Part shown: piece by piece, positions 1,821-31,100 of the stretch
Position numbering within the stretch: position 1 is the first letter of the stretch
Layout of the letters: each line of letters opens with the position of its first letter
Source: Candidatus Latescibacterota bacterium
Lineage (GTDB): Bacteria > Latescibacterota > UBA2968
DNA length: 64,000 bases
Direction: 5' to 3'
Assembly (NCBI GenBank): GCA_965204375.1
Contig: OZ241986.1
Location: forward strand, 5,984,001-6,048,000
The notes under the pieces: model-generated
The model's input: only the letters and a program-made list of their open reading frames with translations
Databases searched by the model: none
What the model was told of the DNA's origin: nothing
Program-made: the position numbers and the translations under genes

Positions 1821-1854
1821 GTCGGTAGTATCCGTATAAGTGTAAAAGGGCGAA

Positions 1855-3016: not shown

Positions 3017-3033
3017 TCTCTTTTCTCCTTTTT

Positions 3034-3158
3034 GATCGCGGATTAGCGCGGATGAAAGGATTTCACGGATCACAACCTCATTCTCCGCACTATTTCCAAT
3101 TCCTAATCCGCGTCTTCCGCGTAATCTGCTTCATCCGCGATCCAGACCAGTTTCCACC
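3034..3158. repeat. Intergenic repeat copy B with imperfect inverted arms (cggat/atccg periodic REP-like element), upstream of TIR-TPR
   Basis: gatcgcggattagcgcggatgaaaggatttcacggat (3034-3070) pairs imperfectly with atccgcgtcttccgcgtaatctgcttcatccgcgatc (3106-3142). Direct repeat of 1855-1965. Confidence 0.8.
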
Positions 3159-3321
3159 TCACCAACATAATATACCCACATTCCGAAAGAGTAGCCTTGC
3201 CTTTTTCAAATTCCGTCTTATTTTGCATAAAGCCTTAAGTGCGGAATAAAAAAGAAACGTTTGCCATTATAAATCACTTTATCGATGCTGATATCGATAT
3301 TCATATTTCGGAGGGAAGAAG

Positions 3322-4536: not shown

Positions 4537-4539
4537 TGG

Positions 4540-7425: not shown

Positions 7426-7431
7426 AAAAGG

Positions 7432-9402
7432 TTGAATTTGAAAAGTACGATTCTATCAAAAGTGACGCGGCGGTCGCTTGTAATCGGTCTGATCATGGCG
7501 GCGTGGGTCAATTTTTGGCCTGTGTACGCGAGTCTGGTGCTGCATTCCACGCGTGCTGATCACGCGCATTTGTCCGTGGCTCTGCTCATCCCGTATTTGT
7601 TTTTGCTGGTGGGCAATCTGTTTCTGGGGCGGCGTGGTTTGTCGCCATCTGAATTGTTGGTCGTGTGTTGTATAGGCATAGTGGCTGCGTGTATGCAAGG
7701 GGAGTGGTTGTCGAATTATTTTCTCGAAGCGCTTACTATGCCGCACTATTTTGCGTCGGCAGAGAACCGATGGGGCGAATTGTTGTTGCCGCATTTGCCG
7801 GGGTGGGCTGTGGTAAATGACCGCGAGGCTGTGACGCATTTTTACGAGGGATTGCCGCCTGGGGAGGGGTTTCCATGGCGTTTGTGGATTGCCCCACTGT
7901 TCTGGTGGGGCACTTTTTTGGGTGCTATACTGGGTGTTAATCTCTGCTTGAGCGTGATTTTGCGAAAGCAGTGGGTGGCGCACGAGCGGCTGGCATTTCC
8001 CGTGGCGCGCGCGCTTTTGGAACTGACGGGTGTGTCTGGAACGCGCGGCACACTTTCATCTCTGGTGCGGTCGCGTTTTTTTCTGGTGGGGTTTGCGATC
8101 ACCTTTCTGCTTATTTGCTGGTTTATGCTCACCTGGTTTTATGTGGCTGTGCCGCCGCCGCCCATTTTGAGTGGGAATTTTGCGTCTAAATTGTTGCCTC
8201 TTGCGCGGGGTTTTCCGCCTTTTCAGTTTCGGTTCAGTATTTTGACACTGGTGTTTGGCTATTTCACAAATCTGGAAGTGCTGTTTTCAATCTGGTTTTT
8301 TCATGTGCTGGCTATTGTGCAGGCGGGGGTGTTTAATCGCTTTGGTCTGGAAGTGGGGAGTGTGGATCCGTGGGGGTCTTTTCACGCGGCGGTGGGGTGG
8401 CAGAGTTTTGGGGGGATGATCGTTTTTGTCGGCTGGGGTCTGTGGATTGCGCGGTCGCATTTGCGGGATGTTTTTCGCAAAGCGTTCTGGGGTGATGATC
8501 GCGTGGATGATACCGGGGAGTTGATGTCGTATCGGACCTCTGTATGGATGATGCTGGGCTGCTCTGCATATCTTCTGTTGTGGTTGAAGAGCGCGGGTAT
8601 GGCCTGGGGACCCATTTTGGCATTTTATTTTGCTACGCTGGTCTTGTATTTGGGATTGGCGCGGATTATGGTGGAGAGCGGGCTTATTTTTTTGCGCGGG
8701 CCGATCACGGCGCAGGCTTTTACCTGGCATTTGTTCGGCGTTTTGGGCATGGGTCCGGGTAGTGCGGTGATTTTGACGCTGACCAATGCGTTTGCATGCG
8801 ATGCCAAGACGTTTGCGATGACGCCTATGGCGCATGTGCCGAGGTTGGGGATGGCGATAAATAGCAGGTTGCGCAAAGTGCTCGCGCCGGGCGTGATGTT
8901 GGGGGCGTTGATTGGGACTGTGACGGCGGTGGGGTTTATTTTGTATTATGGCTATTATGTGATGGGGAGTTACAATTTTGGAACTGTGAGTTTTCGGGGC
9001 ATTGGGGCGCTGAATCTGGCGGGGTTTAACCAACTCGCCGTGGGGCGCATTCAAGCCGGGACAATGGGCACGAGTTGGGATCGCATCGGTTTTTTGGGGA
9101 TTGGTGCCGCATTTACGGGATTGTTGTTTTTCTTGCGGTATCGGTTTCCGGGGTTTCCGCTTCATCCGATTGGGTTTACAATTTCGGCTTCTGCACCGCT
9201 TCGCAATACGACGCTGACGATTTTTATGGTTTGGGCTTTGAAGACGATTGTGTTGCGCCTTGGCGGCTTGGAGCGCTATCGCAGGTTGACACCGCTTTTT
9301 CTGGGGATGATGGTCGCTTATATGGCTGGTACGGCAATCGGTGTTGTTGTGGATTGGATCTGGTTCCACGGGCAGGGGCATATGATCCATGTTGCGTGGT
9401 GA
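7432..9402 (+). CDS. Polytopic membrane protein, DUF6785/DUF6784-like (putative peptide transporter)
   Basis: Many TM helices; motifs ILRKQWVAHERLAFP and LRYRFPGFPLHPIGF are typical of this family. Confidence 0.8.
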   Translation: MNLKSTILSKVTRRSLVIGLIMAAWVNFWPVYASLVLHSTRADHAHLSVALLIPYLFLLVGNLFLGRRGLSPSELLVVCCIGIVAACMQGEWLSNYFLEALTMPHYFASAENRWGELLLPHLPGWAVVNDREAVTHFYEGLPPGEGFPWRLWIAPLFWWGTFLGAILGVNLCLSVILRKQWVAHERLAFPVARALLELTGVSGTRGTLSSLVRSRFFLVGFAITFLLICWFMLTWFYVAVPPPPILSGNFASKLLPLARGFPPFQFRFSILTLVFGYFTNLEVLFSIWFFHVLAIVQAGVFNRFGLEVGSVDPWGSFHAAVGWQSFGGMIVFVGWGLWIARSHLRDVFRKAFWGDDRVDDTGELMSYRTSVWMMLGCSAYLLLWLKSAGMAWGPILAFYFATLVLYLGLARIMVESGLIFLRGPITAQAFTWHLFGVLGMGPGSAVILTLTNAFACDAKTFAMTPMAHVPRLGMAINSRLRKVLAPGVMLGALIGTVTAVGFILYYGYYVMGSYNFGTVSFRGIGALNLAGFNQLAVGRIQAGTMGTSWDRIGFLGIGAAFTGLLFFLRYRFPGFPLHPIGFTISASAPLRNTTLTIFMVWALKTIVLRLGGLERYRRLTPLFLGMMVAYMAGTAIGVVVDWIWFHGQGHMIHVAW

Positions 9403-9405
9403 GTG

Positions 9406-9478
9406 GACGAATAGACGAATAGACGAATAGACGAATAGACGGAGCGGGGTACAACTGGTTCAGGCCAGTTCATCAACG
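9406..9478. repeat. (GACGAATA)x4 plus REP-like unit cggggtacaactgg..caggccagttcatcaacg
   Basis: Read directly; the second copy is at 21771-21881. Confidence 0.85.
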
Positions 9479-10437
9479 CACGGGGTTGTGATTAACCGAT
9501 ACAGATTGGGGATTGTCTCCCGGTGGTCGCCCTGGATATAATAGCTTTCTCCGCCGTCGCGCACGGTGCGGACGAGGATGGTTTTGAAGGGGCGGTAGTA
9601 GTAGCGGGGGTCGGTTTTGGGAGCTTCGGTGTCGAGGTCGTCGCCGAGGGGGATGAGGTCGAAGACTGCTGTGGTAAATCTGGCGATGCTGCGGTCTTCC
9701 TGGCGGGCGACATTGCGGGCCATGGCGAGGGCTTTGAGATAGACTTCAGGTCCCATGATGGCCGTGCCGATGTTGAGGAGGACGCCGCCTTCGAGGTGGG
9801 AGATGGATTCTGTGAAAATTAAGAAGTCGGTGTAGGTGCTCGCGCCAATCGCTGCACCGTCGCAGTTGGGGTGTTCGTGGACGATGTCATAACCGATGCT
9901 GACGTGTGTGGTGATGGGGATATCGAGTCGGACAGCAGCGGCAAAAATACTGATGTCTTTGTGTGGGTAATTGCTTTCGAGGATGTTGCGCCCAACGGCT
10001 TCGCCCAGTCCAATGCTTTTTTGCGCCGCTGTTTGGGCAATGAGGTTGAGGTCGCCTGTTTCTGTCCACAGTCCAAATTCTCCGGTGCGGATATATTTGC
10101 CCACGCTTTCGGTGGTTGCGCCGATGCGGGCAAATTCGTAGTCGTGAATGGCACAGGCGCCATTGCCCGCAATATGGGTGATGAGGCCGCGTTCCATCAG
10201 GTCGATGAGATAGCGCGCGGCACCGGCGCGAATGACGTGTGCGCCGATCATGAATATGACCGCACAATTGTTTTGTCTGGCGCGTACTATTCGATCTGCG
10301 ACAATGGGAAGGTTGGGGTTGTCAAAGGGAGGTATTGGCGCGTTGAGGTCGGGAATTTGGTCGATAGAGAGGTCGTGTTCCCGCTGGTTGAGGGGGCGGA
10401 GTTTGAGTTTGGAGCGGTCGAAGGTTTTGTAAGGCAT
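9460..10437 (-). CDS. Deoxyhypusine-synthase-like fold protein (GSU2086-like family)
   Basis: MIGAHVIRAG..LITHIAGNGACAIHDYE..IGYDIVHEHP..GGVLLNIGTAIMGPEVYLKAL. Confidence 0.7.
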   Translation of the reverse strand: MPYKTFDRSKLKLRPLNQREHDLSIDQIPDLNAPIPPFDNPNLPIVADRIVRARQNNCAVIFMIGAHVIRAGAARYLIDLMERGLITHIAGNGACAIHDYEFARIGATTESVGKYIRTGEFGLWTETGDLNLIAQTAAQKSIGLGEAVGRNILESNYPHKDISIFAAAVRLDIPITTHVSIGYDIVHEHPNCDGAAIGASTYTDFLIFTESISHLEGGVLLNIGTAIMGPEVYLKALAMARNVARQEDRSIARFTTAVFDLIPLGDDLDTEAPKTDPRYYYRPFKTILVRTVRDGGESYYIQGDHRETIPNLYRLITTPCVDELA

Positions 10438-10447
10438 GTTCGCGGTT

Positions 10448-11170
10448 CTAAATGTATTGATATGCTTTCATGGCGGGATGTAAGAACTCAAAATCATGGA
10501 CGCCATCATCGGTTTTCCACCTGCCTACGGAATCGGAGCGTACGATTACTTTGCCCAATGGAAATCCGAGGAATTTCTCTACCCGCGCAAATGTCTCATC
10601 TTGATTTAATATCGCATCTTCAAATCGCACGGTGATGCAGTGTTTGGGCACGGGCGTGGATTTCATGATTTCATACTGATACAACCAGGAAATTGCCCGC
10701 CGTTCGCGTATGTCATCTGTGTGCGGATATTGAATATCGAAGTCGCGCAAATCATCTGTTTTGTGTCCACTCAAAATACAATCGCGCGGGTCGCGTACCC
10801 AGTGAATGTATTTTGCATCGGGAAACATGCGTACAATCCACGGATAGACCAGTGTGGTTTCGGGTAATTTCCATCCGTAGTTCTCGTACCGATTTCTGGG
10901 GGGAAGCACGTCTTGCAAATAGGTTTCGACGAGGTGGATGAATTTGGGATCAATGTCCATGGTATGCAAGGCATCAAAATCCCACGATAGGTCGCCATTC
11001 CATTTCACGTATTTTGCCATTACGCGGCACGCATCGTACAGCGCCTGGGGGGGCATTTTATCGCCCGATGCATTGATCAAGCGCCCCATGTACATACCGC
11101 TGGCATAGAGCGTGTGGGAGATCAACCGCGTGCCCGAATGCCCACGTCCGATAACTGTGACTAACGACAA
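10448..11170 (-). CDS. Sulfotransferase family protein
   Basis: PAPS loop GRGHSGT, GWKLP, HWVRDPRD, VRFED. Confidence 0.85.
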   Translation of the reverse strand: MSLVTVIGRGHSGTRLISHTLYASGMYMGRLINASGDKMPPQALYDACRVMAKYVKWNGDLSWDFDALHTMDIDPKFIHLVETYLQDVLPPRNRYENYGWKLPETTLVYPWIVRMFPDAKYIHWVRDPRDCILSGHKTDDLRDFDIQYPHTDDIRERRAISWLYQYEIMKSTPVPKHCITVRFEDAILNQDETFARVEKFLGFPLGKVIVRSDSVGRWKTDDGVHDFEFLHPAMKAYQYI

Positions 11171-11182
11171 GGTTCTTTCTCC

Positions 11183-12013
11183 TTATAGTTTTTGTTCAAA
11201 CTCGTTTTTTATGCGAATTTTGTCGGCTGCATTTCCAAAGCCCAGGCTGAACCATCCTTCGTAGCCCATGGCATTTAAGCGTTTGAAGAGTGCGCCAAAA
11301 TCGATGGTTCCTTCCCCGGGTACCAGGTGTATTTCATAATCGCCATTGTTGTCATTTACGCGTACCTGGCCGATGTTATCTACGCCAAAGGTATCGAGAA
11401 ATCCATCCCAACCCTCGGGCACGAGATGTCCGTGCGCGACGTTGAAAGCCCACTTGAAGTGATCGGATTGAATAGCATCAAAAAACCATTGCGTTTCTTC
11501 GACATTGTGCGGCAAATAGTGAATTTCGGCGTGTTTGGGTTCCAGGTTGTGATTTTCAAAATAGATCGCTACGTCGGTTTTTTCCGCCCGATGTACCAGT
11601 CGTTTCATGCGTTCTATGGCAGCATCTCGGCGCGAGGCTATATCGCCAAAGTGATAGCCCCCATGGCCGACGATCCAGCCGCATCCCAACTGGACCGCCA
11701 GATCAAAATTGGCGTTTACATAGACATCGACGGCCTCGGATAAAATTGGGACATATTCGGCATTGTTAATGGCGGAGGAGGGATGGATGCCGATTTGCAC
11801 TGCGTGTTTTTCACACAGGTCTCGAATGTGTTTTATGCGTGTATTGTCAAAAGAGGCGAGATTATTTGGGGGCATATCGGCCTGAAAGTCGATATAGCGA
11901 AATCCATTTTCCGCACCCCATACAATGCCTTCTTCAAGGGGTGTATTTTTGTCCATGTTGTAGCCAAATCGTCCGCTCACTATTGCCTCCATTATCAAAA
12001 AATCATTATCCAA
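11183..12013 (-). CDS. Sugar phosphate isomerase/epimerase (xylose isomerase-like TIM barrel); start uncertain
   Basis: IYFENH, FNVAHGH, HLVPGEGTIDF, GYEGWFSL. Confidence 0.8.
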   Translation of the reverse strand: MDNDFLIMEAIVSGRFGYNMDKNTPLEEGIVWGAENGFRYIDFQADMPPNNLASFDNTRIKHIRDLCEKHAVQIGIHPSSAINNAEYVPILSEAVDVYVNANFDLAVQLGCGWIVGHGGYHFGDIASRRDAAIERMKRLVHRAEKTDVAIYFENHNLEPKHAEIHYLPHNVEETQWFFDAIQSDHFKWAFNVAHGHLVPEGWDGFLDTFGVDNIGQVRVNDNNGDYEIHLVPGEGTIDFGALFKRLNAMGYEGWFSLGFGNAADKIRIKNEFEQKL

Positions 12014-14444: not shown

Positions 14445-15596
14445 TTATGGCTCAATCAGATTGTCGTTAATATAGTCCCAGTTGAAATCAAATCCCAGAC
14501 CTGGTAGCTGGGGTAGGATGACATTGCCGTCATCATCCAGGGGATCTACAATGGAATTCAAATAGGGGGGTGGGGTTTCGTAGTCGAAGTCGGGGCGCAA
14601 GAGGCCGCGTTCGTAGTATTCACAGGTTGCTTCTGTTGTTGCGCCCAGGATTTGGCAGTTTGCCCATCCGCCATAGTGCATTTCGCACTGAATGCCGAAG
14701 GCCTGTGCCACATTCACCATTTTGTAGGATCCCGTGATGCCGCCATAGTTGTGATCGATGCGCAGCATGTCAGATGCGCCCTGGAGTACCCATTCGGCGC
14801 GTGTGAAGACGCCGCCGGGAATGTGTTCTGGCGAGAGAATGGCGATGTCCAGTTCGCGGGTCAATCGTCGGTATGCTTCTGTTCGCGTTTCTACCATGGG
14901 GTGTTCGAGCCAGTAGTAGTTCAGTTTTTCCAGTTGGCGGCCGACCCACAAAGATTGCTCCAGGGTATATACGCCGAAGGGATCAAGCATTAAGACCATG
15001 TCGTCGCCAACCGCTTCGCGCACGGCTTTGCATACTTCTATGTCTTCTTTGGGGAATCCGGGTACCTGTGGGGCAGGTTCCCAGGTGTGTGGGTTCCAGC
15101 AGATGTACGCGTGAACTTTGTAGGCTTTGTATCCCTGTTTTTTGCACTCAAGAGCATGTTCGGCATAATCTTCTGGTTTGCCGATGTTTGGATACGTGCT
15201 GGCATAAGCTTTTACTTTGTCGCGGGCACCGCCGAGGATTTTGTGAACGGGCAGGTCAACCATTCTGCCGAGCAGATCCCAAAGGGCGCAATCGACTGCG
15301 CCCATAACATGTTCGGGCAATGAATGACCGAAGGTGACGAGTTGGTCCATCCAGTTCCAGATGGTTTCACGGGATAGGGGATCTTCGCCGATTAACATGC
15401 GCTTGATCGGGCCTTCGAGGTATCGCCGGTCGCCACCGACCATATATCCTTCGAGGCCTTCATCTGTTACGATTTTGAAGATTGAGCTTGCCGACTCTTT
15501 TTGCTTTTCTCCCCAGACGCCGTAGCCCCACTTACTCGGTCGAGACCTGCCGCCTGGCGTGCGGAATGTAATCACTTCGATGTCTGTAATTTTCAT
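14445..15596 (-). CDS. Mandelate racemase/muconate lactonizing (enolase superfamily) enzyme
   Basis: AVDCALWDLLG, AYKVH, LMLDP, WLEHP, SPE, GGITG, PGLGFD. Confidence 0.9.
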   Translation of the reverse strand: MKITDIEVITFRTPGGRSRPSKWGYGVWGEKQKESASSIFKIVTDEGLEGYMVGGDRRYLEGPIKRMLIGEDPLSRETIWNWMDQLVTFGHSLPEHVMGAVDCALWDLLGRMVDLPVHKILGGARDKVKAYASTYPNIGKPEDYAEHALECKKQGYKAYKVHAYICWNPHTWEPAPQVPGFPKEDIEVCKAVREAVGDDMVLMLDPFGVYTLEQSLWVGRQLEKLNYYWLEHPMVETRTEAYRRLTRELDIAILSPEHIPGGVFTRAEWVLQGASDMLRIDHNYGGITGSYKMVNVAQAFGIQCEMHYGGWANCQILGATTEATCEYYERGLLRPDFDYETPPPYLNSIVDPLDDDGNVILPQLPGLGFDFNWDYINDNLIEP

Positions 15597-15747
15597 GGGG
15601 TCCTCAATTCAAAAGACGGAAAGGAATACAGATTACTCACGATGTTTCAAATTAGCTTCTTATACTGAAAAATCAAGGGTAGATTAACCCGTTTTAGATG
15701 TTGTTACGATTAATTGACACCGTCATAGGTAGCAACCACTTTGAAGC

Positions 15748-15776
15748 TTGACAATGTTTTTTTTTCAAGTCATACT
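15748..15776 (+). promoter_or_regulatory. Sigma70-type promoter with T9 tract in the spacer
   Basis: TTGACA (15748-53), 17-nt spacer atgtttttttttcaagt, CATACT (15771-76); points into the 16.0-20.8 kb operon. Confidence 0.6.
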
Positions 15777-16059
15777 TGGAATTAAGTTTATGCTTATTAT
15801 GAAGTTATTCAGACACTCAACAACATTCTGATACCCACTGGAAAAAGCGGTGCAGTGCTTATTCAGGCATCAGGTTGTAGAGATCAATGGTAAGAAAACT
15901 ACAGGCAAGCAAGACTTCTTTAGAGTCTTTATGAAAAGAAATGAGCAGTTTCTAAATGATAGAGGTAATAACAGGGGGTCTTGTACCTGCCGCCTTTCAC
16001 GCCAATGAAGGAGCTACAGGTGCGCGGAAAGTTTATCTTGAACAGATGGGCCTTAGACA

Positions 16060-16554
16060 TTGTTATTCATTATCAGAGACCCGTTCAGTGCTCATATTGA
16101 ACTGTATTGGGGAATCATTGGGCTGGTTGCCCAGTACCTTGATAAATCTGTAGAGGCATTGACGGCAGTAGTCCACGCCCACGAACTCGGACATGCGTAT
16201 ACGCATTTGGGTGCAGATATTGATGGACATCGGTGGGCTTCCCTTGATTTCTACAACAGTGATCATCCTCTAAAGGAAGGGCTTTCACAATATTACACGG
16301 ACTTGATTTGTCGCAGCCATAGCGAGAAGGTTCCCCAAGTTTACGAGACGTATGAAGCCCTTCTGGAACGTCAGCCGGAAGCTTATCGGACACACGTTCC
16401 CTGGACTGAGAAGTGTTCTCCTGAGGAAGTTCGATTTGCGCTGATCGAAATTCGGCGACACGGCCCCGGACATCTAAACACATTTGAGGAAGCCCTTGAT
16501 GAAGCCCATCACCGACTTCAGCAACGGACAGGAGTGGGCATTACTGCAAGTTAG
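16060..16554 (+). CDS. HExxH zinc-metallopeptidase-like protein (gluzincin-type), possibly 5'-truncated
   Basis: VHAHELGHAYTH plus downstream LKEGLSQYYT. TTG start with no RBS, and an in-frame TAG at 16054. Confidence 0.6.
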   Translation: MLFIIRDPFSAHIELYWGIIGLVAQYLDKSVEALTAVVHAHELGHAYTHLGADIDGHRWASLDFYNSDHPLKEGLSQYYTDLICRSHSEKVPQVYETYEALLERQPEAYRTHVPWTEKCSPEEVRFALIEIRRHGPGHLNTFEEALDEAHHRLQQRTGVGITAS

Positions 16555-16566
16555 GAAATCTGAATT

Positions 16567-18111
16567 ATGGATATATTCTGGAATTCTGGAGAAAGAGAGA
16601 AAGTCCAGGGATTGGACTTCCTGAATGTCCGAAGCATTGACCAGGCGATGGAAAAACAGTGGGTTGCTGGCATCACGACGATTTCACCCCGAACTCGATA
16701 TCTTTCCTTGCTACCCTGGGCGTTATCATTATACTATGAAAGAGAATTAAAAGCCCAAACGAGTGTTCAGTACGACTATCAGCATTTGCGTCATTTTTTG
16801 AGCCGCTTAGAAGTCATCATCCTCGCGGCTTCTTCTCTTACAAAACCTGGTGAAAGTATTCCCAAAACCACGAGTATCTTAGGTCGAGACACACACAAAA
16901 ACTTACTCTTGCAGTTACAAGATTCGGGATATGTAGAATTGGAACCGAATGGCGGTGGGGCGATTGCTCGGACATATGTCAGGCCCTGTCAGGGGTTTGA
17001 TATCTTGGAGAGCGGTGCCCCTATCAAATTGCTTGAGCGAGGACGAAAGCTATATGATGCAAAGCAGCGATTGCTGGTAGGATGTCCTTTTATTGACAAT
17101 CTCTTCACCGGAGGGAAAGTCACAGCCGAAGATATTCTCACTTGGCGAGATCATTTTTCTATCACGGGATTGCTATCGGCTGCTGGGACCGAAGAAAAGA
17201 ATTTGCTCGTATCGTTTTTTTTAACCTCCCAGAATCCACAAAATGAGCCTCATTACCAACGGTTCCGTGGCACATTAAAATGGATCCTGATGCGGGCTAG
17301 AGAGAACCCTTCATCTCCTGGGGATCTGATTGCTGAGGAATATAGTCAGTGTCTTGGAAATGGCTCAAATGCGAATTTAGAAGCAGTTCGGGTTGCTTGG
17401 GTGAATTACGAACTGCGTCGCCGAGGGCATTGGGGGCTTGAATTACTTCTCTCAGCCTTCAGTAACACACTCAAAACGCTTGTCACTGCCAATCTGGATG
17501 AGATTATCAGTGAGTGGATAGATGAAGATGAAATCCCGGAATATCTGCGTAGTGCCATAGCAATCCATAATACACCTTGGGAATTGTCTTGGAAGGAATT
17601 TCTTGCATCAATTCCTGAAAATCTGTTGCTACATAAAACGCCATCAACTGGTGAGTCCAGGAACTCCCGCCCACATATACAAGCCTTTTTAGGATTCTTG
17701 CTGGTTGTGTCTTGCTGGTGCCATTCACAACCTTGGCGTGAGAATAAATTGCTTCGGACTTTCGAGAAAGGACCTCTGGATTTCGCATTTGAAATTCTGG
17801 ATCAGGCTGGGGGGAAGTCTATTGTTGAGGTTCTGTCTCAGCTTGTAGGTGATTGCGCCGTTACACCTCATCTGCAAACGACATGGCGTAAGATGGGCAA
17901 TGGGCAGAAATGCTCACTCAGATTTTTTTGGGACGGAGAAGCCTTCAGATCAACGGGAACCATCACCATGCCTGGATTTAGCGGCGAAAGATTAGGCAAT
18001 GTAATGCGTATGCTGGCAGACTTAGGTCTGCTCACTTCCCCGCAGAAAGGGAAGTATACCACTACAGAAGCAGGCCAAGCTGTGCTTGCTGAATTGGAAA
18101 AGATAGGATGA
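16567..18111 (+). CDS. Hypothetical protein (GLDxL...GITTISPRxRY N-terminal motif), candidate defence component
   Basis: 514-aa ORF. C-terminal GFSGERLGNVMRMLADLGLL..YTTTEAG looks winged-helix-like. ATGA overlap with the next gene. Confidence 0.8.
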   Translation: MDIFWNSGEREKVQGLDFLNVRSIDQAMEKQWVAGITTISPRTRYLSLLPWALSLYYERELKAQTSVQYDYQHLRHFLSRLEVIILAASSLTKPGESIPKTTSILGRDTHKNLLLQLQDSGYVELEPNGGGAIARTYVRPCQGFDILESGAPIKLLERGRKLYDAKQRLLVGCPFIDNLFTGGKVTAEDILTWRDHFSITGLLSAAGTEEKNLLVSFFLTSQNPQNEPHYQRFRGTLKWILMRARENPSSPGDLIAEEYSQCLGNGSNANLEAVRVAWVNYELRRRGHWGLELLLSAFSNTLKTLVTANLDEIISEWIDEDEIPEYLRSAIAIHNTPWELSWKEFLASIPENLLLHKTPSTGESRNSRPHIQAFLGFLLVVSCWCHSQPWRENKLLRTFEKGPLDFAFEILDQAGGKSIVEVLSQLVGDCAVTPHLQTTWRKMGNGQKCSLRFFWDGEAFRSTGTITMPGFSGERLGNVMRMLADLGLLTSPQKGKYTTTEAGQAVLAELEKIG

Positions 18112-20789
18112 GAACGGATTTAATTGGCAAAATGCGACACTTGAAGGATTTGGAGAATGCGATTGTGCTCACTCACAACATCGATTGCGTCTTCCTGGAG
18201 TCTATCCTTCTGCCAACGTTGAGGCGGGCTGGTAACCCCATGCTTACCGTATTTGCTGAGAGCACCTGTGCGATCGATACGTTTCAACGTCAGAGTCTCT
18301 ATCTTTCCGGACTGGGACGCAGGTATCGTATGGTCTCCGTCAACCTTCCCCATCCCTTTCGATTTCATCCCAAAGCTGTGTTACTTGCCGCACGGCAACG
18401 TGCCCACCTGTTTATTGGAAGCGGAAACATAGGTTTTGGGGGATGGCGAGAGAATGGAGAGATTTGGGTAGAATATGTGCTGGATGAAAAAGATCAACAA
18501 GCAGCACCCGCTTTTGCCTTCTTTCGGGATTACTTGAAACAGATATTGAGGATTGTCCCCTTTACAGAGACCATAGAGCATGAAATTGCAGATGCCTTTT
18601 CGCAGGAGCGAAAGCAGTGGGTCTCTTATTTGGCAGAAAGTGGTGGGCTGATTGGTCGAGCAGGAAGTGGCCCGAGCCTGATAGACTGTTTGGACGATGT
18701 AATTTCGAGTGAACCTGTTGATCGACTCTGGATCTGTGCTCCTTATTATGATATTCGGGCAGAAGCCCTGAACGCTTTAAAAGAAAAGTTCGAGGCAAAA
18801 GAGACTCGGGTACTCTTGCAGGAGAAAGAAACCAATTTTACTTCCGAAGCTGCGGAAGCACAGACAAAGGATGTTCGGCTTAAATCCGTGAACTACAATG
18901 GAAATGATGGTAAAACCAGATTCTTGCATGCCAAATTCTATGGTCTTGAAAGAAAAAGGCGAGTTACGGTTCTTCTTGGAAGCGCCAACTGTTCGAATGC
19001 GGCTTGGATGATTCCTGGCAATCGGGGAAACGCGGAACTGGTGGCGATTAAGGAGATGAGCAAGAAAGAGTTCGAGCAACATATTCTGCAGGAACTCCAT
19101 ATAGCAGACGAACCACCAGAGCTTCAATCTCACCAAGAGCGGGATGATGTGTCTGAACCGGAAACGTATGCGTTGCGAGCCTTGGCCGCGAGTTTTGACA
19201 GATTTGAAGGTATCAATGTGCGGTTTCAGAAAGATGTAAATATTGAAATTTCTAGATGTTTGATCGACAACCAACCCGTTGAATTCAAGATCGAGAACGA
19301 AAGTGAACTCACAGCGAATCCTCTTCCTCAGACCATACCTGGTAAGGGCAACCGGGTTTTGCAGTTGGAAGGAGAGGGCTCACTAGGGAAGATCTGCTCG
19401 AATCCCATCTGGATAGATCAGGAATTTGAACTGTGCACGACCTCTAAAGAACGCACACTGGTTGAGACCATACAACAGAATGTAAAGCAGGATACCTGGG
19501 GTCTGCCGGCTTTCAATGAAATCTTAAGATTGCTACAAGATCACCTGGACTATTTAACAACACATAAGACATCGAGGGGTGGACAGAACGGGCGTAGCGG
19601 TTCTGAGAGAGTCATTCGATTCACACGCGAGGATGTATTTGCCGATGGTTTCGGACTCCTCTCGCAAACGTCAACTGTTTCTGATATTGCTATTCAGAAT
19701 CAAGTAGAAGGATTGAAGGACTTGCTACTCAGATATTTTGGTGTCGAATGGATTCAAGAAGAAGATCCATCGGAAGAGGAAACGATGGATCCTCAAGAAG
19801 CGGAAGATGATTCAATCAGTCCAGACGAACTGGAATCACGAAAGCTGGAGCGATCCCTTGCTGGACCATCTCCAAAAGACTCTCATCCTGATAATGACCC
19901 GGTGAAGCAAAAGAAAAACCGTCAAAGAACCCTCCAGTTTTTTGAGTCGATCATCAATACCATTTCTGATGAGAATTATTTGCTGCAAAGATCACCAGAT
20001 CTGATTGCTAAAGATTTAGCGATCATAGCTATACTAATGACTTCTGCAATAAATGAAGAAGCACCGGGTTTGGGAATAAACTGGCTCACTGAAGATGAAT
20101 ACTTCGAATTCACTCGCCGGGTTTGGAATGTATTTTTTTTCAAGATTATACAGTCTGAAACGGATTCTTCAGGACAATACCACGGTTATCTTGACAGACG
20201 TTATCAGGAATCCGAAGATCCACACGCTTTCAGCCGGTCTTTTGCCTCTACCGATTTTGCCGCTGCCATTGCTGTGTGGGTGTTGGCAAATTTGAAAGAC
20301 AAGCCTTCTCCGCGAGAAGCACAATTAGCTCTGATACAAATTTCTGCAGTTGCTCATTTTCCCTGGCTGTGGCGCGCAGATGCTTTTTCTGATCTAGCCC
20401 CTATAATTAAACGTCTTTTAGTCCATACCAAAGTTCTGCCATTAGAAAAACAGGAAGATTTCGGACGCTATCTCACAAAATGGCGTGAATTTATCCAGGT
20501 TGGAAATGCAATCGGTGTCTTTCAGGAAATATTCGAGGATTTTGAACCCGAAAATGTAAAGGACATACTTGAGCGGAGTGAAATACAGAAGGGAGAGCTT
20601 CTTTGGCAGGGAGGATCAGGTCTTTGTGTTGCCCAGAAAGATTGCCTAAGGTTACCTAAAAAAAAGATTGATGTTCTGAGTTTACAGAGTCATGGTAGCA
20701 GTCCGAAGAAGACTTTCTATGCTGACTACCTGATTCCAGTCGGAGCACTTTGGGTCTTTTTAAGTTGCCAACTCTTAATGAGTTTCTGA
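18108..20789 (+). CDS. Tandem phospholipase D-superfamily (HxK..GSxN) nuclease-like protein with long C-terminal extension
   Basis: FHPKAVLL..LFIGSGNI and FLHAKFYG..LLGSANCS..GNAEL, followed by an acidic linker and a helical C-terminus. Confidence 0.85.
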   Translation: MRTDLIGKMRHLKDLENAIVLTHNIDCVFLESILLPTLRRAGNPMLTVFAESTCAIDTFQRQSLYLSGLGRRYRMVSVNLPHPFRFHPKAVLLAARQRAHLFIGSGNIGFGGWRENGEIWVEYVLDEKDQQAAPAFAFFRDYLKQILRIVPFTETIEHEIADAFSQERKQWVSYLAESGGLIGRAGSGPSLIDCLDDVISSEPVDRLWICAPYYDIRAEALNALKEKFEAKETRVLLQEKETNFTSEAAEAQTKDVRLKSVNYNGNDGKTRFLHAKFYGLERKRRVTVLLGSANCSNAAWMIPGNRGNAELVAIKEMSKKEFEQHILQELHIADEPPELQSHQERDDVSEPETYALRALAASFDRFEGINVRFQKDVNIEISRCLIDNQPVEFKIENESELTANPLPQTIPGKGNRVLQLEGEGSLGKICSNPIWIDQEFELCTTSKERTLVETIQQNVKQDTWGLPAFNEILRLLQDHLDYLTTHKTSRGGQNGRSGSERVIRFTREDVFADGFGLLSQTSTVSDIAIQNQVEGLKDLLLRYFGVEWIQEEDPSEEETMDPQEAEDDSISPDELESRKLERSLAGPSPKDSHPDNDPVKQKKNRQRTLQFFESIINTISDENYLLQRSPDLIAKDLAIIAILMTSAINEEAPGLGINWLTEDEYFEFTRRVWNVFFFKIIQSETDSSGQYHGYLDRRYQESEDPHAFSRSFASTDFAAAIAVWVLANLKDKPSPREAQLALIQISAVAHFPWLWRADAFSDLAPIIKRLLVHTKVLPLEKQEDFGRYLTKWREFIQVGNAIGVFQEIFEDFEPENVKDILERSEIQKGELLWQGGSGLCVAQKDCLRLPKKKIDVLSLQSHGSSPKKTFYADYLIPVGALWVFLSCQLLMSF

Positions 20790-20839
20790 AGATATTTCAC
20801 CTTCTCCTCTGGCAATCCTACTACGTTGAGCATTTTCAT
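20726..20839 (-). pseudogene. Short ORF or gene fragment (MKMLNVVGLPEEKVKYLQKLIKSWQ...) overlapping the PLD gene end
   Basis: RBS GGAGGT before ATG 20839; upstream TTGACA-16-TAAATT at 20949-20922. Only 37 aa. Confidence 0.4.
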
Positions 20840-20975
20840 ATTGACCTCCCAACTTCCAGTAAATGACCATCTCTGGGTTAGCCATATCTCAAGTGGTATG
20901 GTGGTGTTAGACAACTAACTGAATTTACGGTAATTCAATCCGTTGTCAATTTGTAATATGTTGGAGAGAAGCGAA

Positions 20976-21017
20976 ACAAAAAGGGGCTACGCATCAATTT
21001 ACGTAACCCCTTTTTGT
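20976..21017 (-). terminator. Rho-independent terminator downstream of tRNA-Val
   Basis: acaaaaaggggctacg / cgtaacccctttttgt inverted repeat with T tracts. Confidence 0.75.
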
Positions 21018-21023
21018 GTTTGA

Positions 21024-21100
21024 TGGTGGGCGATACTGGATTCGAACCAGTGACCTCCTGCTTGTAAGGCAGGCGCTCTAACCAGCTGAGCTAACCGCCC
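21024..21100 (-). tRNA. tRNA-Val (anticodon TAC)
   Basis: Reverse complement GGGCGGTTAGCTCAGCTGGTTAGAGCGCCTGCCTTACAAGCAGGAGGTCACTGGTTCGAATCCAGTATCGCCCACCA; cloverleaf, TTCGA, encoded CCA. Confidence 0.97.
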
Positions 21101-21114
21101 GGATAATGTTAAAT

Positions 21115-21369
21115 CTATCTCACATCGGTTGATGGCTCATCTTCTTTTTTGTAGCTGAGCAGGGCTATTGGGATCAATACGCAATAACCGAGTACGAGTA
21201 GCAGCGGGGCAAGCGTGAGCGACATAAAGCCATCGACTGGCGGTAGGGAGAGAAAAACATAGCCCAGTGCAATGGCGATAAGCCCAAGCCCAAAAAGCCA
21301 CATATTTCGTTCTGAATAGGGCAACTTTGGCCGGGGTTTGGGACGTTGTCGCGCTCGGCGAGGAGGCAT
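21115..21369 (-). CDS. Small two-TM membrane protein (DUF3098-like)
   Basis: Start MPPRRARQ just after rplS; LP..NM..FGLGL..LGYVFL..SLTLAPLLLVLGY..IPIAL. Confidence 0.7.
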   Translation of the reverse strand: MPPRRARQRPKPRPKLPYSERNMWLFGLGLIAIALGYVFLSLPPVDGFMSLTLAPLLLVLGYCVLIPIALLSYKKEDEPSTDVR

Positions 21370-21379
21370 AATAGAATTC

Positions 21380-21727
21380 CTATCGACGTTCTGTAATGCG
21401 GGCAGCACGACCGCGTAGATCGCGCAGGTAATAAATTTTTGATCGCCGCACTTTACCGCGACGCAGTACTTCAATTTTGGCTATGCGAGGCGTGTGCAGT
21501 GGAAAGATGCGCTCTACCCCAACGCCACCCGTGCTAATTTTGCGAACTGTAAATGTCGCGTGAATACCCGGTCCTCGGCGCTGGATGACCACACCCTCAA
21601 AGAGCTGGATGCGTTCTTTTTCTCCTTCTACCACGCGGACATGCACGCGCACGGTATCGCCAGCTTCAAACTCGGGCACATCATCGCGCAGTTGTGCTTC
21701 AGAAACAGATTTCAAAATGGCATCCAT
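21380..21727 (-). CDS. rplS: 50S ribosomal protein L19
   Basis: [54 protein letters not shown]. Confidence 0.98.
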
Positions 21728-26275: not shown

Positions 26276-27115
26276 TTAATACTCATAGGTCACTGAAGCG
26301 CGATGCGTGATTCCCAGTACTGTATGCCATACTCCGGCATAGTCAATCGCAAAGTCACTTTTTTTAAGGCCAAATCCCGCGCTCAGTCTTTCCGGTCGGC
26401 CGCCTGCTCCTGTGCGTAGTACCAGTTGGGGATGGATATGATACATGATCCCAATGCCCGCACCTGTAGGAAAATTCGCTTCTTTCTGTATATCTGCTAC
26501 CAATACGACTTGAGGCATGATAGCAATACCCATTCCCACGGTGCCACTCTGTCCCAAAAGCGAGGTGTGTCTGCCACCTGCATTCCAGATTGCTGCGCCC
26601 AGAAAGACGCCTTCGCGTATCTGCAATTTTATGCCCGCATCGAATACCAACCAGTGTTGTGTGGGGATTCCCGCTGTGCTGAGTTGTAAGGCGCGTATGC
26701 CGAGTCCCAGGCTCAGTTTTTGGAAGACGCGCAGTCCATAAACGAGACCAAATACCTGCTCTTTGTATAGCGCAAATCCAAATCCCGTATATCTCGCGCC
26801 CAGGCCATGACGTCCAATCCGCAGGCCAGCACTGAACGCATGGGTTGCCAGTTCGGCTATTCCAAAGGGTCGGTCATACATGCCAAATAAGCTCATTCGC
26901 TTGCCCCATGTCAGTGCTGCGGGATTCCAAAATGCGCCTGAGGCACCGGCTGCCAGTGCCACGCCTGCATCGCCAGTACCTGCGGTATGGGCGCCAATGG
27001 GATGAAATTCAAAGGCTGCGTGAGTAGATGAAGGGAGGAGTGCGAAAAGTGTAAATACAATCCACTTTGCTTGCGGAATGCGGAAAAGCGAGCTGAGACG
27101 CAATTGATCTGGCAT
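26276..27115 (-). CDS. Outer-membrane beta-barrel protein (PorV-like); start uncertain
   Basis: Signal-like segment, AFEFHPIGAH..G.A, FWNPAAL, alternating beta strands, ends HTVLGITHRASVTYEY. Confidence 0.65.
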   Translation of the reverse strand: MPDQLRLSSLFRIPQAKWIVFTLFALLPSSTHAAFEFHPIGAHTAGTGDAGVALAAGASGAFWNPAALTWGKRMSLFGMYDRPFGIAELATHAFSAGLRIGRHGLGARYTGFGFALYKEQVFGLVYGLRVFQKLSLGLGIRALQLSTAGIPTQHWLVFDAGIKLQIREGVFLGAAIWNAGGRHTSLLGQSGTVGMGIAIMPQVVLVADIQKEANFPTGAGIGIMYHIHPQLVLRTGAGGRPERLSAGFGLKKSDFAIDYAGVWHTVLGITHRASVTYEY

Positions 27116-27415
27116 AGGAGACCACGTATGGGATGGGTTAGGGATGTGTGTTTTGACAGTCTTTCTGCAAATGGCATACCAGATACTCACCTTCTTTTTA
27201 ACCTGTTGATATTACACGCCGAAATCTGTTTATTGTCGGTTAGAATAGACGGGTAAATGTCGGCTACTATGCGACAGAGTATTTTAATCGGTCGCTCGTT
27301 ATTAGACAAAAAACGCTCTCAATGGGGTGAGATAATCGCGGTTGCTTTATGAGAAAAAAGAACCGATATTTTAACCGTTCGATTTCTACAAATCTTCACC
27401 TGGAGAGAGAAGGTT

Positions 27416-28153
27416 ATGGCTTATTTTACCGACGAAGAGAAATTGCATTTCAAAGAACAGGGGTATGTTGTCAAACGCGATGTCGTGCCGATGCATTTGA
27501 TCGATAAGGCGGTGGATGTGGTATGGGAGGAGATTGAGGCAGATCGCGATGATCCCAAAACGTGGATCAATGCAGGACCGAAGGGAAATTTGAAATGCAG
27601 CAATCATCCCGATGTGCGGGCGACGTTGACGGAGACGCCGATTCAGGATATGTGCGAGGAGATGGTGGGTAAAGGGACCCTGGCTGTGTCGAATTACACG
27701 TTTGCCAAGATGATTTATCCCGAAGGGCACGACAATTGGACGCCGGCCAGGCATATGCATCTGGATGGCTATACGTGTGAAGGCGTGGTGGATACCTTTG
27801 CGATCGCGGTGACGGTGAATATCAATCACGTTAAGCCGCGCTCGGGTGGGTTTTCGATATGGCCCGGCGCGCACAAGCGGGCTTATGAATATTTTAAGAC
27901 GCACAGTTTGGTGAATGGGTTAGATGCGTTTCGCAATGCGCAGGGGGAGTATTACGGCCTTCCCACGCCGGTTGATGTTACGGGGCCGCCGGGCACGGTG
28001 ACGTTCTGGCATCATCTGATGTTGCACAGCCCGGGGGTAAATTGCGGGCGGGATATTCGCATGGCGTTTGTGAGTCGTTTTCGGCGGAGGGATAATAACG
28101 ATATGCGCTTTGAGACGCCGGATGATATGTGGGCGTATTGGGATGGACTGTAG
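27416..28153 (+). CDS. Phytanoyl-CoA dioxygenase family (2OG-Fe(II)) protein
   Basis: FKEQGYVV, HLDG, WPGAH, GTVTFWHHLMLH..N..R. Confidence 0.85.
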   Translation: MAYFTDEEKLHFKEQGYVVKRDVVPMHLIDKAVDVVWEEIEADRDDPKTWINAGPKGNLKCSNHPDVRATLTETPIQDMCEEMVGKGTLAVSNYTFAKMIYPEGHDNWTPARHMHLDGYTCEGVVDTFAIAVTVNINHVKPRSGGFSIWPGAHKRAYEYFKTHSLVNGLDAFRNAQGEYYGLPTPVDVTGPPGTVTFWHHLMLHSPGVNCGRDIRMAFVSRFRRRDNNDMRFETPDDMWAYWDGL

Positions 28154-28185
28154 GCGGATTCCGCGTTGGAATACAAAAGGATAGG

Positions 28186-31100
28186 ATGGCGAGTAAAAAC
28201 CAACAAATAAAAAAACGCGGACCGCGCAGAAAGCGGCCAAGTCTGATGTCAGCAGTGTGGTCGCTGCTGCCCGCGTGTATGCTCAAAGACGGCATGGAGA
28301 TTGCGCGGCAGTTGCGGCAAATACAGCGGCAAAAGCGGCGCGATACGGTGCGGTTGAAGAATCTGAAGGTGCAGGCAGAGCGGTCGGCTGCGTTGCGTAA
28401 AGACCGGGGAGATAATCCGCTGTACTTGACGTATCCAGAAGCGTTGCCGATTGTGGCGCGGAAGGATGAGATTGTTCGGGCGATTCGAGAACATCCCGTG
28501 GTGATTGTGGCGGGTGAGACGGGTTCGGGGAAGACGACGCAGTTGCCCAAGATGTGTTTGGAGGCCGGTCGCGGTGTGGCGGCGAAAATTGCGTGTACCC
28601 AACCCCGGCGCGTGGCGGCGCTATCGGTGTCGCGGCGTATTGCAGAGGAGTTAAATGTCGCGTGGGGTGCCGAGGTGGGGTGCAAAATTCGGTTTAAGGA
28701 TGAGACTGCGCCCGAGACGCGGATCAAGATGATGACGGATGGGATGTTGCTCGCGGAGATTCAGGGCGATCCGAATTTGTATGAGTACGATACGGTTATT
28801 ATTGATGAGGCGCACGAGCGCAGTTTGAATATCGATTTTTTGCTGGGGTATTTGCGTCTGTTGCAAAAGCGACGCCCCGAGTTGCGGATTGTGATTACAT
28901 CGGCGACGATTGATACGGAGGCGTTTTCAAAGGCGTTTGACGATGCGCCGATTATTGAGGTGTCCGGGCGGATGTATCCTGTGGATGTGCAATACTTGCC
29001 TATAGAAGATCTCGCTGGGGAGACGTATATCGATGCGGCGGTGACCGCAGTGGATATGGTGGTTGATGCGGGACGAGGCGATATTCTGGTTTTTATGCCT
29101 ACGGAGAAGGATATCCACGAGACGCGCAGGCGTTTGGAGGGGCGACAACTTCGCTTTACAGAGGTTTTGCCGCTGTTTGGGCGGTTGACAGCGGGCGATC
29201 AGCAGAAGGTGTTTTACAAGCAGAGGTATCGGCGCATTGTGGTGGCGACGAATATTGCGGAGACGTCGATTACGATTCCGGGTATTCGATATGTGATCGA
29301 TACGGGGCTGGCGCGAATCAGCCGGCACAATCCGCGCAATCAGACGCATCGGCTACCGGTGGAGGAGATTTCTCAAAGCAGTGCCAGGCAGCGGGCAGGG
29401 CGGTGTGGGCGCGTGCAAAATGGGGTGTGTATTCGTCTGTACGATGAGAAGAGTTTTCTCGCGCGACCAGAGTACACGCAGCCCGAGATTCAGCGGTCGG
29501 ATTTGGCTGAGGTCATTTTGCGGATGATTGCGCTGCGGCTGGGCGATGTCGAGACGTTTCCATTTATTGATCCCCCCCGTTCTCAGGCGATTCAGGGGGG
29601 ATTTAATGTGTTGAGGGCGCTGGACGCGATTGATGATCACAAGCGTCTGACACCGTTGGGGCGCGATATGGCGCGTTTGCCACTCGCGCCGACGGTATCG
29701 CGGATGATTTTGCAAGCTCGGAAAGAACGCGCTTTGCGCGAGGTGCTGGTTATTGCGTCGGCAATCAGCATTCAAGATCCGCGCGTTCGGCCGCTCGAGC
29801 AAGAGAAGGCGGCAGACCAGGAGCACAAGCGATTTGTAGATGGAGAATCGGATTTTGTAGCGTTGCTGAATATCTGGAAGACGTATCACGATACGTTTGA
29901 GAAATTGAGAACTCAGAGCCAGATGCGGAGATTTTGCAAGCAGCATTTTTTATCTTTTAATCGCATGCGCGAATGGCGCGATATTTATATGCAGATTCGA
30001 CATACTCTGCGTGAGATGGGCAGTTTTCGGATGAACCGGGACGATGCGGGATACCACGCGATTCATCGGTCGGTGGTGAGTGGGTTGTTGGGCAATGTGG
30101 CACAGAAGAAGGAAGACAATATGTATCGCGCAGCGCGTGGGCGCGATGTGATGTTGTTCCCGGGGTCTGGCCTGTTTCAACGGAGAGAGGGCAGAGAGGA
30201 AGATAAAAAGAGTACGCCCGGTTGGGTGGTGGCTGCGGAGGTGGTGGAGACGTCGCGTTTGTTTGCGCGCACTGTGGCTCGCATACAGCCGTCGTGGCTG
30301 GTGGAGTTGGGCGGACATCTGTGCCGGGCATCTTATAAGGAGCCGTTTTACAGCAGGCGGTCGGGGCGGGTGCTGGCGACCGAGACATTGACGCTGCACG
30401 GTTTGCAGGTGGGGCAAAAGCGCGTGGGGTATGGCGGTATAGATGCCAGTGCTGCGACGGAGATTTTTATCCGCGAGGCTCTGGTGAATGATGAGGTGGC
30501 GTTGCCTTATGAATTTGTGGCTCAGAATCGGGATTTGCGCGCGCGCGTGGAAACATGGCAGATGCAACAGCGTTTGATGCAATTTCTGGATCTGGACGAG
30601 GCTGCGTATCGGTTTTATGCCGAGCGATTGGAGAATATATCTTCCACGCACGATTTGAATCGCCTGATTAAGAGAAAGGGTGCGGATTTTTTGCTGATGT
30701 CCGAGAAGCATCTGGCGGGTGAGCAGGTGGATTTTGATCGGGATGCGTTTCCCAATTTTTTGGAGGTGGATGGCGAAGAGGTGCCGCTTTCTTATGCGTA
30801 TCGGCCCGGACAGGATCGGGATGGCGTGACGTTGCAATTGCCGTACAAGCTGGTGCATTTTGTACAGCCGGAGGTGCTGGACTGGCTGGTGCCGGGATTG
30901 TTGGAAGAAAAGATCACATATATGTTGCGCGGGCTTCCAAAAAGTATTCGCAAGCGGTTTGTGCCCGTGCCGGACAAGGCGCGAGAGATTGCCGCGGCGT
31001 TGCAGCCAACGCACGGTGCGTTTTTGGATTCGCTATCTGCCCATATTCTGGGTACATACGGTATTGAGATTTCTCAAAGCGATTGGAATGTGCGCGATTT

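Follow-up and report, generated by a model that had tools for sequence, protein, structure and literature searches.

Azaca, the described system closest to the gene pair considered here, consists of ZacA (DUF6361), the phospholipase D (PLD) nuclease ZacB and the superfamily 2 (SF2) helicase ZacC; in the part of the preprint available to us, DNA is cleaved in vitro only when all three proteins are present, mutation of the Walker A motif of ZacC abolishes activity, and ZacABC prefers the DNA of phage T4, with glucosyl-hydroxymethylcytosine suggested by the authors as a possible cue (10.1101/2025.07.10.664194). A pair of genes remotely related to the first two of these lies in a stretch of 64,000 nt from contig OZ241986.1 of Candidatus Latescibacterota bacterium (hereafter the window, in which all coordinates are given; the host genome is coded G000). 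The pair encodes P514, a protein of 514 residues, and a PLD-superfamily protein of 893 residues (the PLD protein); together with a preceding frame for an HExxH-motif protein, these are three open reading frames (ORFs) in the same direction, spaced by a 12-nt gap and then by a 4-nt overlap. We lean, with some reserve, towards reading window 16567-20789 as one copy of a widespread helicase-free module that is a distant relative of the Azaca anti-phage system.

Other described systems share parts of this layout. In the portion of the account available to us, END nucleases follow a modular logic of sensor plus PLD nuclease, and BfiI and NgoAVII have a cognate methylase (PMC12191111). The window pair would resemble BfiI, NgoAVII, SauUSI and the END nucleases in joining a PLD nuclease that needs no metal to a distinct module for sensing DNA; whereas BfiI-type enzymes carry one PLD half per chain, dimerise and have the sensor fused into the same polypeptide, the window pair has both PLD halves in one chain and a second protein as its putative sensor, with no conserved methylase. 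The single dimerising PLD half, the fused B3-like domain and the methyltransferase of the BfiI/NgoFVII type are absent from the pair, and the Pfam family RE_NgoFVII has no match in the PLD protein. DISARM comprises the helicase DrmA, DrmB (DUF1998) and the PLD protein DrmC, usually with a methylase; the likeness to DrmC and to PDC-M27 consists of weak, partial matches in the PLD domain, while the island that holds the pair contains no DrmA, DrmB, methylase, PDC-M27A or PDC-M27C partner.

A conserved pair of P514 and PLD genes

Among 57 related loci, taken from one-genome-per-species collections, the PLD gene followed the P514 gene on the same strand in 51, and 46 of these pairs were full-length; the six exceptions were contig ends (L013, L020, L023, L033) and truncated P514 remnants (L043, L055). 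The two genes overlapped by 4 nt in 23 of the 43 pairs with called ORFs. Both proteins have hundreds of full-length relatives labelled hypothetical, and the record titles of the loci name at least 12 phyla, among them Latescibacterota, Acidobacteriota, Gemmatimonadota, Chloroflexi, Myxococcota and Planctomycetes, with further titles from Alpha- and Gammaproteobacteria, Desulfuromonadales, Campylobacterota (Sulfurimonas), Bacillota and others. A profile search with P514 reached 928 representative clusters at E<=1e-3 and 209 at E<=1e-30; the best 150 did not exceed 537 residues, so that no fusions were seen among them. The P514 family has neither a name nor a Pfam entry, yet across many phyla its members go with one PLD partner. 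When all neighbours were clustered, no third conserved gene emerged, the next commonest neighbour family occurring in 7 of the 57 loci. SNF2 helicases stand near some pairs (family f3 in six loci, f15 and f18 in two each), and were ruled out as a third component; their strand and position vary, and they adjoin methylase genes of their own.

The surroundings of the pair were surveyed by comparing 306 neighbours (at least 120 residues, within 4 kb) from 54 loci with Pfam. By a hand count made without a matched control, 34 of the 54 loci had defence or mobile-element hallmarks near the pair, eight were ambiguous and 12 had none. Restriction was represented by Type I and Type ISP restriction-modification systems, McrBC, Mrr and Eco57I-type methylases; other defence hallmarks were AbiE, AbiJ, DUF4238, STAND NTPases, E2/ThiF/JAB proteins, SMODS, reverse transcriptase, PIN-TPR proteins and toxin-antitoxin genes; and mobile elements were represented by integrases, serine recombinases and transposases, with RecT or ParB/RepB at some loci. 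P514 and the PLD protein form a conserved, helicase-free two-gene module that lies mostly in defence or mobile islands, and the pair probably serves in anti-phage defence. At one locus (L001 5158-8641, in genome G010), the P514-PLD cassette is directly preceded by genes for AbiJ_NTD4/DUF7014, DUF4238 and an N6/N4 DNA methylase; DUF4238 adjoins the pair at L012 as well.

P514 is predicted to be a DNA-recognition subunit built of several helix-turn-helix (HTH) or winged-helix units. Its AlphaFold2 model is of high confidence (predicted local distance difference test, pLDDT, 88.8; predicted template modelling score, pTM, 0.87). Foldseek found no match for the model in the PDB at E<=0.001; exhaustive alignment with VIA placed the recognition domains of N.BspD6I (Z 7.5), FokI (7.4) and BpuJI (5.8) at the top, followed by BrxA (4.7) and by PaqCI and SspB (both 3.9), with about 160-200 residues aligned, although Z values below 8 can, according to the tool, reflect a common arrangement. 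FokI, BpuJI, BrxA and SspB have been described as structurally homologous DNA-binding or DNA-scanning modules of defence systems, in the part of that article available to us (PMC12839542). This class, whose members have two or three HTH or winged-HTH modules superposable on BrxA, on the FokI D1-D3 domains or on SspB, supplies the top structural rows of P514, at modest Z values (3.9-7.5); P514 is about twice as long as BrxA, and its profile comparison with DUF4007 was negative. That comparison (hhalign, DUF4007 profile of eight proteins, 0.2%) served as the negative control, and a kinship of P514, or of DUF6361, with DUF4007 was ruled out at the profile level.

The link to ZacA lies at the N-terminal end of the protein. 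The ESM Atlas gave a weak pointer from P514 to DUF6361 (0.82), and hhalign against a DUF6361 profile made from six proteins of the same phylum gave a probability of 90.4% (E 1.4e-6, 106 columns), with P514 residues 16-151 aligned onto ZacA residues 30-146; this region includes the invariant family motif GLD..R..DQ..GITTIS.R.RY..L.W. At the C-terminal end, residues 475-513 have matches to HTH_45 (E 0.003) and Mrr_N (E 0.009) that remain under the Pfam cut-off, and the model shows a helix (476-485), two strands (489-493 and 496-499) and a second helix (501-513). Sequence searches of the PDB with both family profiles returned nothing meaningful (best E values 0.033 and 0.05).

The PLD protein belongs to the PLD superfamily and has two HxK + GSxN sites in a pseudo-dimeric fold. 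Its catalytic motifs are HPK..GSGN (H87, K89 and N107, with codons at 18366, 18372 and 18426) and HAK..GSAN (H274, K276 and N294, with codons at 18927, 18933 and 18987), and these six residues are invariant across 32 aligned sequences. Pfam PLDc_2 matches above its cut-off (E 1.2e-10), and PADLOC ranks ZacB first (5.2e-19), before PDC-M27B (2.7e-6) and DrmC (6e-4). In the AlphaFold2 model (pLDDT 81.5), the core comprising residues 1-345 aligns with PLD-family structures at Z 12-19.6 (VIA); yeast Tdp1 (Z 19.6, 323 residues aligned) and human Tdp1 (19.1; Foldseek E 1e-8 for Tdp1) are the best matches, followed by Vaccinia F13, a bacterial PLD and PLD4, and other PLD folds also reach Z 15-19. The second PLD half by itself matches SauUSI (Z 10.6), BfiI (Z 9.2) and NgoAVII (Z 6.9). 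Tdp1 likewise has a tandem PLD core, with motifs of the form HxK..N rather than HxK..D. It differs in being a eukaryotic repair enzyme without such a partner or such C-terminal domains, and the sequence match of the PLD protein to the Pfam family Tyr-DNA_phospho (E 0.004, 16.5 bits) stays under the 22-bit cut-off. Behind the core follow a domain like the immunoglobulin (Ig) or IPT fold, with modest matches to IPT/TIG and Fn3-like domains (Z 7-8); a disordered acidic linker with pLDDT below 50 at residues 483-506, 513-528 and 547-592 and with the highest omega (nonsynonymous to synonymous rate ratio), 0.52; and a C-terminal part consisting of a helical domain (596-830) and a small beta unit (831-875). 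Residues 596-881 were barely covered by the fold searches, so that "no known fold" is not claimed for this domain.

Relation of the pair to Azaca

The pair and Azaca have the same gene order, with a small alpha-helical protein first and a PLD protein second; the N-terminal region of P514, about 135 residues, is profile-homologous to ZacA; ZacB is the PADLOC family nearest to the PLD protein; and both systems occur in defence islands and, in genome G013 of the same genus, Azaca occupies the same hotspot by tRNA-Val as the pair does in the window. The differences are equally plain. No ZacC helicase ORF is found in 15597-21023, and none is conserved beside the pair in the 57 loci; P514 is about 100 residues longer than ZacA (514 compared with about 400-430), and the PLD protein is about 280 residues longer than ZacB, its Ig-like domain, acidic linker and helical C-terminal domain lying outside the ZacB profile. 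The pair is related to the first two genes of Azaca, yet it scores as Azaca in none of the tests of membership. As a system it is absent from PADLOC v2 and NCBIfam, P514 is absent from Pfam, and NCBIfam matched none of the three window proteins. No description of a helicase-less pair of a ZacA-like and a PLD protein was found in the literature searched on Azaca, on DUF6361 and on PLD/Tdp1 proteins in anti-phage defence, the extended data of the Azaca preprint excepted.

The original prediction, made from the sequence of the window, had proposed a helicase-free two-component system for DNA recognition and nuclease action, against which a full-length match to a named system would have spoken. 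PADLOC, Pfam and NCBIfam give no such match for P514 or the PLD protein; of the proposal itself, the pairing and the lack of a conserved helicase stand on the locus counts, and the island setting on the hand count. The conservation that it proposed to look for in gene neighbourhoods was found for the pair and not for the trio, since HExxH relatives are missing from all 57 loci. The suspected resemblance to Azaca holds as a remote one, with hhalign and the PADLOC ranking in its favour, while the ZacB match is partial and no full-length match exists; and the winged-helix-like end of P514 is present as a weak match under the Pfam cut-off. The HxK..GSxN half-sites, the HELGH motif and the GLD..GITTISPRTRY start were each located in the sequence.

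From these comparisons we infer a defence function, a complex, a type of substrate and independence from a helicase. P514, with its multiple HTH or winged-helix units and ZacA-like N-terminus, would act as the DNA-recognition subunit and mark foreign DNA, which would most likely be modified or non-self in another respect; a modified or structurally foreign target is proposed because no self-marking methyltransferase travels with the pair. P514 would then recruit or license its PLD partner as the effector, a complex that is suggested by translational coupling and by the precedent of Azaca; a complex prediction for P514 with PLD residues 596-893, for which controls were not run, scored 0.00 and is no evidence either way. 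Enzymes of the PLD superfamily need neither ATP nor divalent metal to break phosphodiester bonds, which they do by way of a covalent phosphohistidine intermediate, and the Tdp1-like tandem core with its two intact HxK..N half-sites may do likewise, independently of ATP and metal. If the pair defends cells in this manner, a nuclease of the Azaca type can dispense with the helicase that proved essential in published work; as a small system of sensor and nuclease that needs no ATP, the pair would lend itself to dissection, and it would give the ZacA/DUF6361-like fold a function.

Several observations weigh against this reading. All structural matches of P514 are modest (Z below 8), and neither Pfam nor PADLOC yields a hit for it at E<=1; a search of G000 with DUF6361 (PF19888) at 1e-10 was likewise empty. 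The PADLOC model of ZacA (PDLC03828) gives 7e-98 and 5e-124 for true ZacA proteins, whereas P514 stays below the ZacA and DUF6361 thresholds; the ZacB model (PDLC03829) reaches 66.5 bits on the PLD protein over profile positions 258-384 of 586, compared with 499.8 and 595.9 bits over positions 1-581/583 in true ZacB. The need of Azaca for ZacC implies that a helicase-free relative may work otherwise or need a host factor. The count of defence islands was made by hand and lacks a matched control, and 12 of the 54 loci have no defence or mobile neighbour; the pair was found by tblastn in none of 72,556 PLSDB plasmids and 50,697 GenBank phage records, and in only two contigs of IMG/VR. For the copy in the window, furthermore, a C-terminal tail of the PLD protein that is present in all 31 aligned relatives is absent, and omega is 0.31-0.52, compared with 0.054 for a flanking core gene.

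State of the window's copy and competing explanations

The PLD gene of the window has lost its 3' end. The match to its closest relative, P0001 (921 residues), spans residues 1-881 at 95%; P0001 then has a further 40 residues that are missing here, and the last 12 residues of the 893-residue ORF are a read-through into unrelated DNA. At the same site, the related genome G004 has a 138-residue C-terminal stub of the PLD protein with the full tail, then a PIN-domain gene and then a gene for a 109-residue antitoxin-like protein; 878 bp present in G004 are missing from the window, and the homology blocks on either side overlap at the junction (20742-20754), which in G004 is an imperfect repeat of about 12 nt. 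A deletion of 878 bp between microhomologies accounts both for the truncation of the PLD protein and for the loss of the vapBC-like neighbour. The partner protein in G004 and G014 is a VapC-like PIN-domain protein of 161 residues (PIN E 3.9e-17; the vapBC-like genes lie at L071 11356-12170 in G004 and L068 3340-4154 in G014); PADLOC matched neither it nor the antitoxin-like protein. Parts of the cassette and of its flanks (window 15000-21500) are also represented, at 90-99% identity, among contigs from four runs (X17-X20) that two studies label as metatranscriptomes; they come from relatives, such libraries can hold DNA, and contigs alone are not counted as proof of transcription. Beyond 20751 and ahead of 20742, contigs among them depart from the window and carry the undeleted PLD tail and vapB sequence of the related strains.

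The HExxH frame is likewise a fragment. The start of its 164-residue ORF is a mechanical TTG, and the frame codes for only the C-terminal 160 or so residues of a family of 244-282 residues. Its nearest relative, P0241 (95% identity), aligns from residue 101 onwards; about residues 99-258 are encoded in the window, and the missing N-terminal part is not encoded in any upstream frame. Within the order (53 genomes searched), G000 alone has this C-terminal part. The protein has no Pfam, PADLOC or NCBIfam family, and tblastn with four full-length relatives as queries found HExxH relatives in none of the 57 P514-PLD loci. The frame is probably a pseudogene, and it stands outside the conserved module. 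The first 33 or so residues of P0241, on their part, match a short multicopy element scattered through the genomes of the genus, with ten sites in G016, six in G014 (several at contig ends) and two in G000 (C1:880564-880665 and 4447429-4447515), and the N-terminus of P0241 is probably read from this repeat, similar to an insertion sequence (IS) or a miniature inverted-repeat transposable element (MITE), and not from the HExxH gene. The three-gene operon of the original prediction is not intact, and neither is this copy as a candidate system, as the 878-bp deletion has removed the tail of the 893-residue protein, about 40 residues, and the HExxH gene is clipped at its 5' end; the suggested role of the HExxH protein as a protease regulator is not supported.

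With a probability somewhat short of even, the window copy is a decaying and non-functional remnant, comparable to the 275-bp stubs of the PLD 3' end that G004 and G018 retain at the hotspot. The missing tail, the microhomology at the deletion junction, the fragmentary HExxH gene and the omega values speak for this explanation, and this copy may be impaired or decaying. About 1,400 codons remain open nonetheless, all catalytic and invariant residues are kept and omega is below 1; conservation in the alignment is lowest in the tail, which is short in some relatives (for example P0042). This explanation concerns the copy and not the family, and it is compatible with the pair being a helicase-free relative of Azaca.

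A second alternative takes the pair for a module of DNA repair or processing that removes 3' adducts or protein-DNA crosslinks in the manner of Tdp1, for the cell or for a mobile element and not for immunity. The best core matches to yeast and human Tdp1, the weak Tyr-DNA_phospho match, the HxK..N motifs without the HKD aspartate, and the integrases, serine recombinases, RecT or ParB/RepB at several loci are all in keeping with it. It is nevertheless improbable in view of the patchy distribution (two of 21 genomes of the genus), the signs of recent transfer and the defence-rich context. The nearest family by sequence is ZacB, which in the preprint text available to us is the PLD subunit of a DNA-cleaving complex (10.1101/2025.07.10.664194); the one ZacB compared (at L083) also lacks canonical HKD spacing, and the Tyr-DNA_phospho score remains under its cut-off.

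The Tdp1-like core also admits a reading within immunity, which we hold for decidedly improbable, that covalent links between protein and DNA, and not plain DNA, are what the pair attacks. The recognition of an incoming DNA end or nucleoprotein would fall to P514, and the core would hydrolyse the tyrosyl- or seryl-phosphodiester bond of a relaxase, a rolling-circle Rep protein or a phage terminal protein; conjugative plasmids or protein-primed phages would then be disarmed without a helicase, ATP or a self-marking methylase. In a milder version, the pair may be a minimal ATP-independent core to which Azaca added a helicase as it arose.

It is very unlikely that the window holds a true Azaca whose zacC gene was deleted. 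The remote link between P514 and ZacA, the rank of ZacB, the deletions at the locus and the genuine Azaca at the G013 hotspot would fit such a history; it is contradicted by the 46 full-length pairs elsewhere that also have no conserved adjacent helicase, and by the failed Azaca scores, as true Azaca loci of the same phylum match all three PADLOC models over their full length (7e-98 to 0) while P514 matches none and the PLD protein only in part. The lengths of the proteins differ as well (514 compared with about 400-430 residues, and about 890 compared with about 615).

Least credible of all is a three-gene system with the HExxH protein as protease regulator of the nuclease pair; in its favour are the 12-nt gap and one RNA-library contig that spans the HExxH-P514 junction, and G010 retains the last 40 or so nt of the HExxH gene upstream of P514, so that the two were linked before the copies diverged. 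The three genes nevertheless do not form a unit, because the HExxH ORF is 5'-truncated and occurs in none of the related loci, and G010 has lost the HExxH gene almost wholly and keeps an intact pair.

The variable island by tRNA-Val

The pair lies in a variable island between an enolase-superfamily gene and tRNA-Val (Table 1). In G002, G008 and G012, of the same genus, the island is absent, and about 60-70 bp separate its flanks, which end at 15677/15681 and resume at 20996/21009; because these flanks nearly adjoin, 15678-21008 represents an insertion or variable segment. The G+C content is 0.42-0.47 across 15500-21000 and 0.50-0.55 in both flanks. The original prediction of linked, co-oriented genes of distinct composition next to tRNA-Val agrees with these data, and its statement that no helicase, ATPase or methylase is present holds for the ORFs within 15597-21023. 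No integrase ORF occurs in the island and no att-type repeats at its borders; the segment lacks the integrase and the direct repeats of the tRNA 3' end that characterise a tRNA-targeted integrative island, and it is delimited solely by the empty sites of relatives.

Table 1. Features at and around the P514-PLD pair, in window coordinates.
Feature	Position	Strand	Remark
Enolase-superfamily gene	14445-15596	-	left neighbour of the island
Variable island, about 5.3 kb, between enolase-superfamily gene and tRNA-Val	15678-21008	.	empty sites in relatives and low G+C
HExxH(xxxH) ORF (HAHELGHAYTH), 164 residues	16060-16554	+	5'-truncated fragment
P514, 514 residues, without Pfam family; predicted multi-HTH/winged-helix DNA-recognition subunit	16567-18111	+	
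P514 residues 16-151, ZacA/DUF6361-like N-terminal region	16612-17019	+	hhalign
P514 residues 475-513, C-terminal winged-helix-like unit	17989-18105	+	weak Pfam matches and model
PLD-superfamily protein, 893 residues here, about 880-920 in relatives	18108-20789	+	3' end truncated
PLD residues 1-345, tandem (pseudo-dimeric) catalytic core	18108-19142	+	
PLD residues 352-440, Ig/IPT-like beta-sandwich	19161-19427	+	model
PLD residues 483-592, low-confidence acidic linker	19554-19883	+	model
PLD residues 596-881, family-specific helical and small beta C-terminal domain	19893-20750	+	
N-terminal remnant of gene for 109-residue vapB-like antitoxin	20726-20914	-	PIN partner gene deleted here
Deletion junction, imperfect microhomology of about 12 nt	20742-20754	.	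joins PLD codon ~881 to interior of vapB-like gene
tRNA-Val (anticodon TAC)	21024-21100	-	right-hand boundary of the island; 3' end toward the genes

G010 has a copy of the cassette (window 16515-20754), 95% identical, at another chromosomal place with unrelated flanks. The synonymous divergence (dS) between the two copies is 0.087-0.093, compared with 0.33 for the enolase-like gene of the same genome pair (G000/G010), which points to a recent transfer of the cassette within the genus. The cassette occurs in two of 21 genomes of the genus, and the 275-bp PLD stub in two more. The module would have reached the variable site by tRNA-Val through horizontal transfer and been clipped later.

The cargo of the hotspot varies among members of the genus, in metabolic as well as defence genes. 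In G014 it consists of vapBC alone and in G004 of the PLD stub with vapBC; in G013 it is a complete Azaca (ZacA, ZacB, ZacC) together with IetAS. The locus records the coming and going of modules: nothing, vapBC, the pair whole or as a stub, Azaca with IetAS, and a TonB/heparinase cluster. At the G013 locus (L083, G013:C431), Azaca occupies 5318-11745 on the minus strand and the IetA/IetS pair 1293-4730; its ZacA, ZacB and ZacC have 421, 615 and 1114 residues and PADLOC values of 7e-98 to 1e-289. The metabolic cluster, of about 10.7 kb, occupies the hotspot in G015 (L070 2946-13430) and G010 (L074 2970-13237) and contains genes for a TonB-dependent receptor-like protein, a heparinase II/III-like protein, DUF6785/DUF6784 and a FadL-like porin.

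A scan for promoters and terminators gave no more sites than shuffled sequences did. Immediately next to the 3' end of tRNA-Val is an inverted repeat with 16-nt arms (window 20976-21017; 94% complementary, 10-nt loop); it straddles the right end of the island, where homology with the empty-site genomes begins, and is therefore partly inside the sequence shared with them. Elsewhere in the window, positions 8000-10500 and 27000-30000 have an unusually strong G-over-C skew (0.23-0.32) and a strongly negative AT skew; the ORFs in these stretches have 656 residues (7432-9402) and 957 residues (28129-30999, open).

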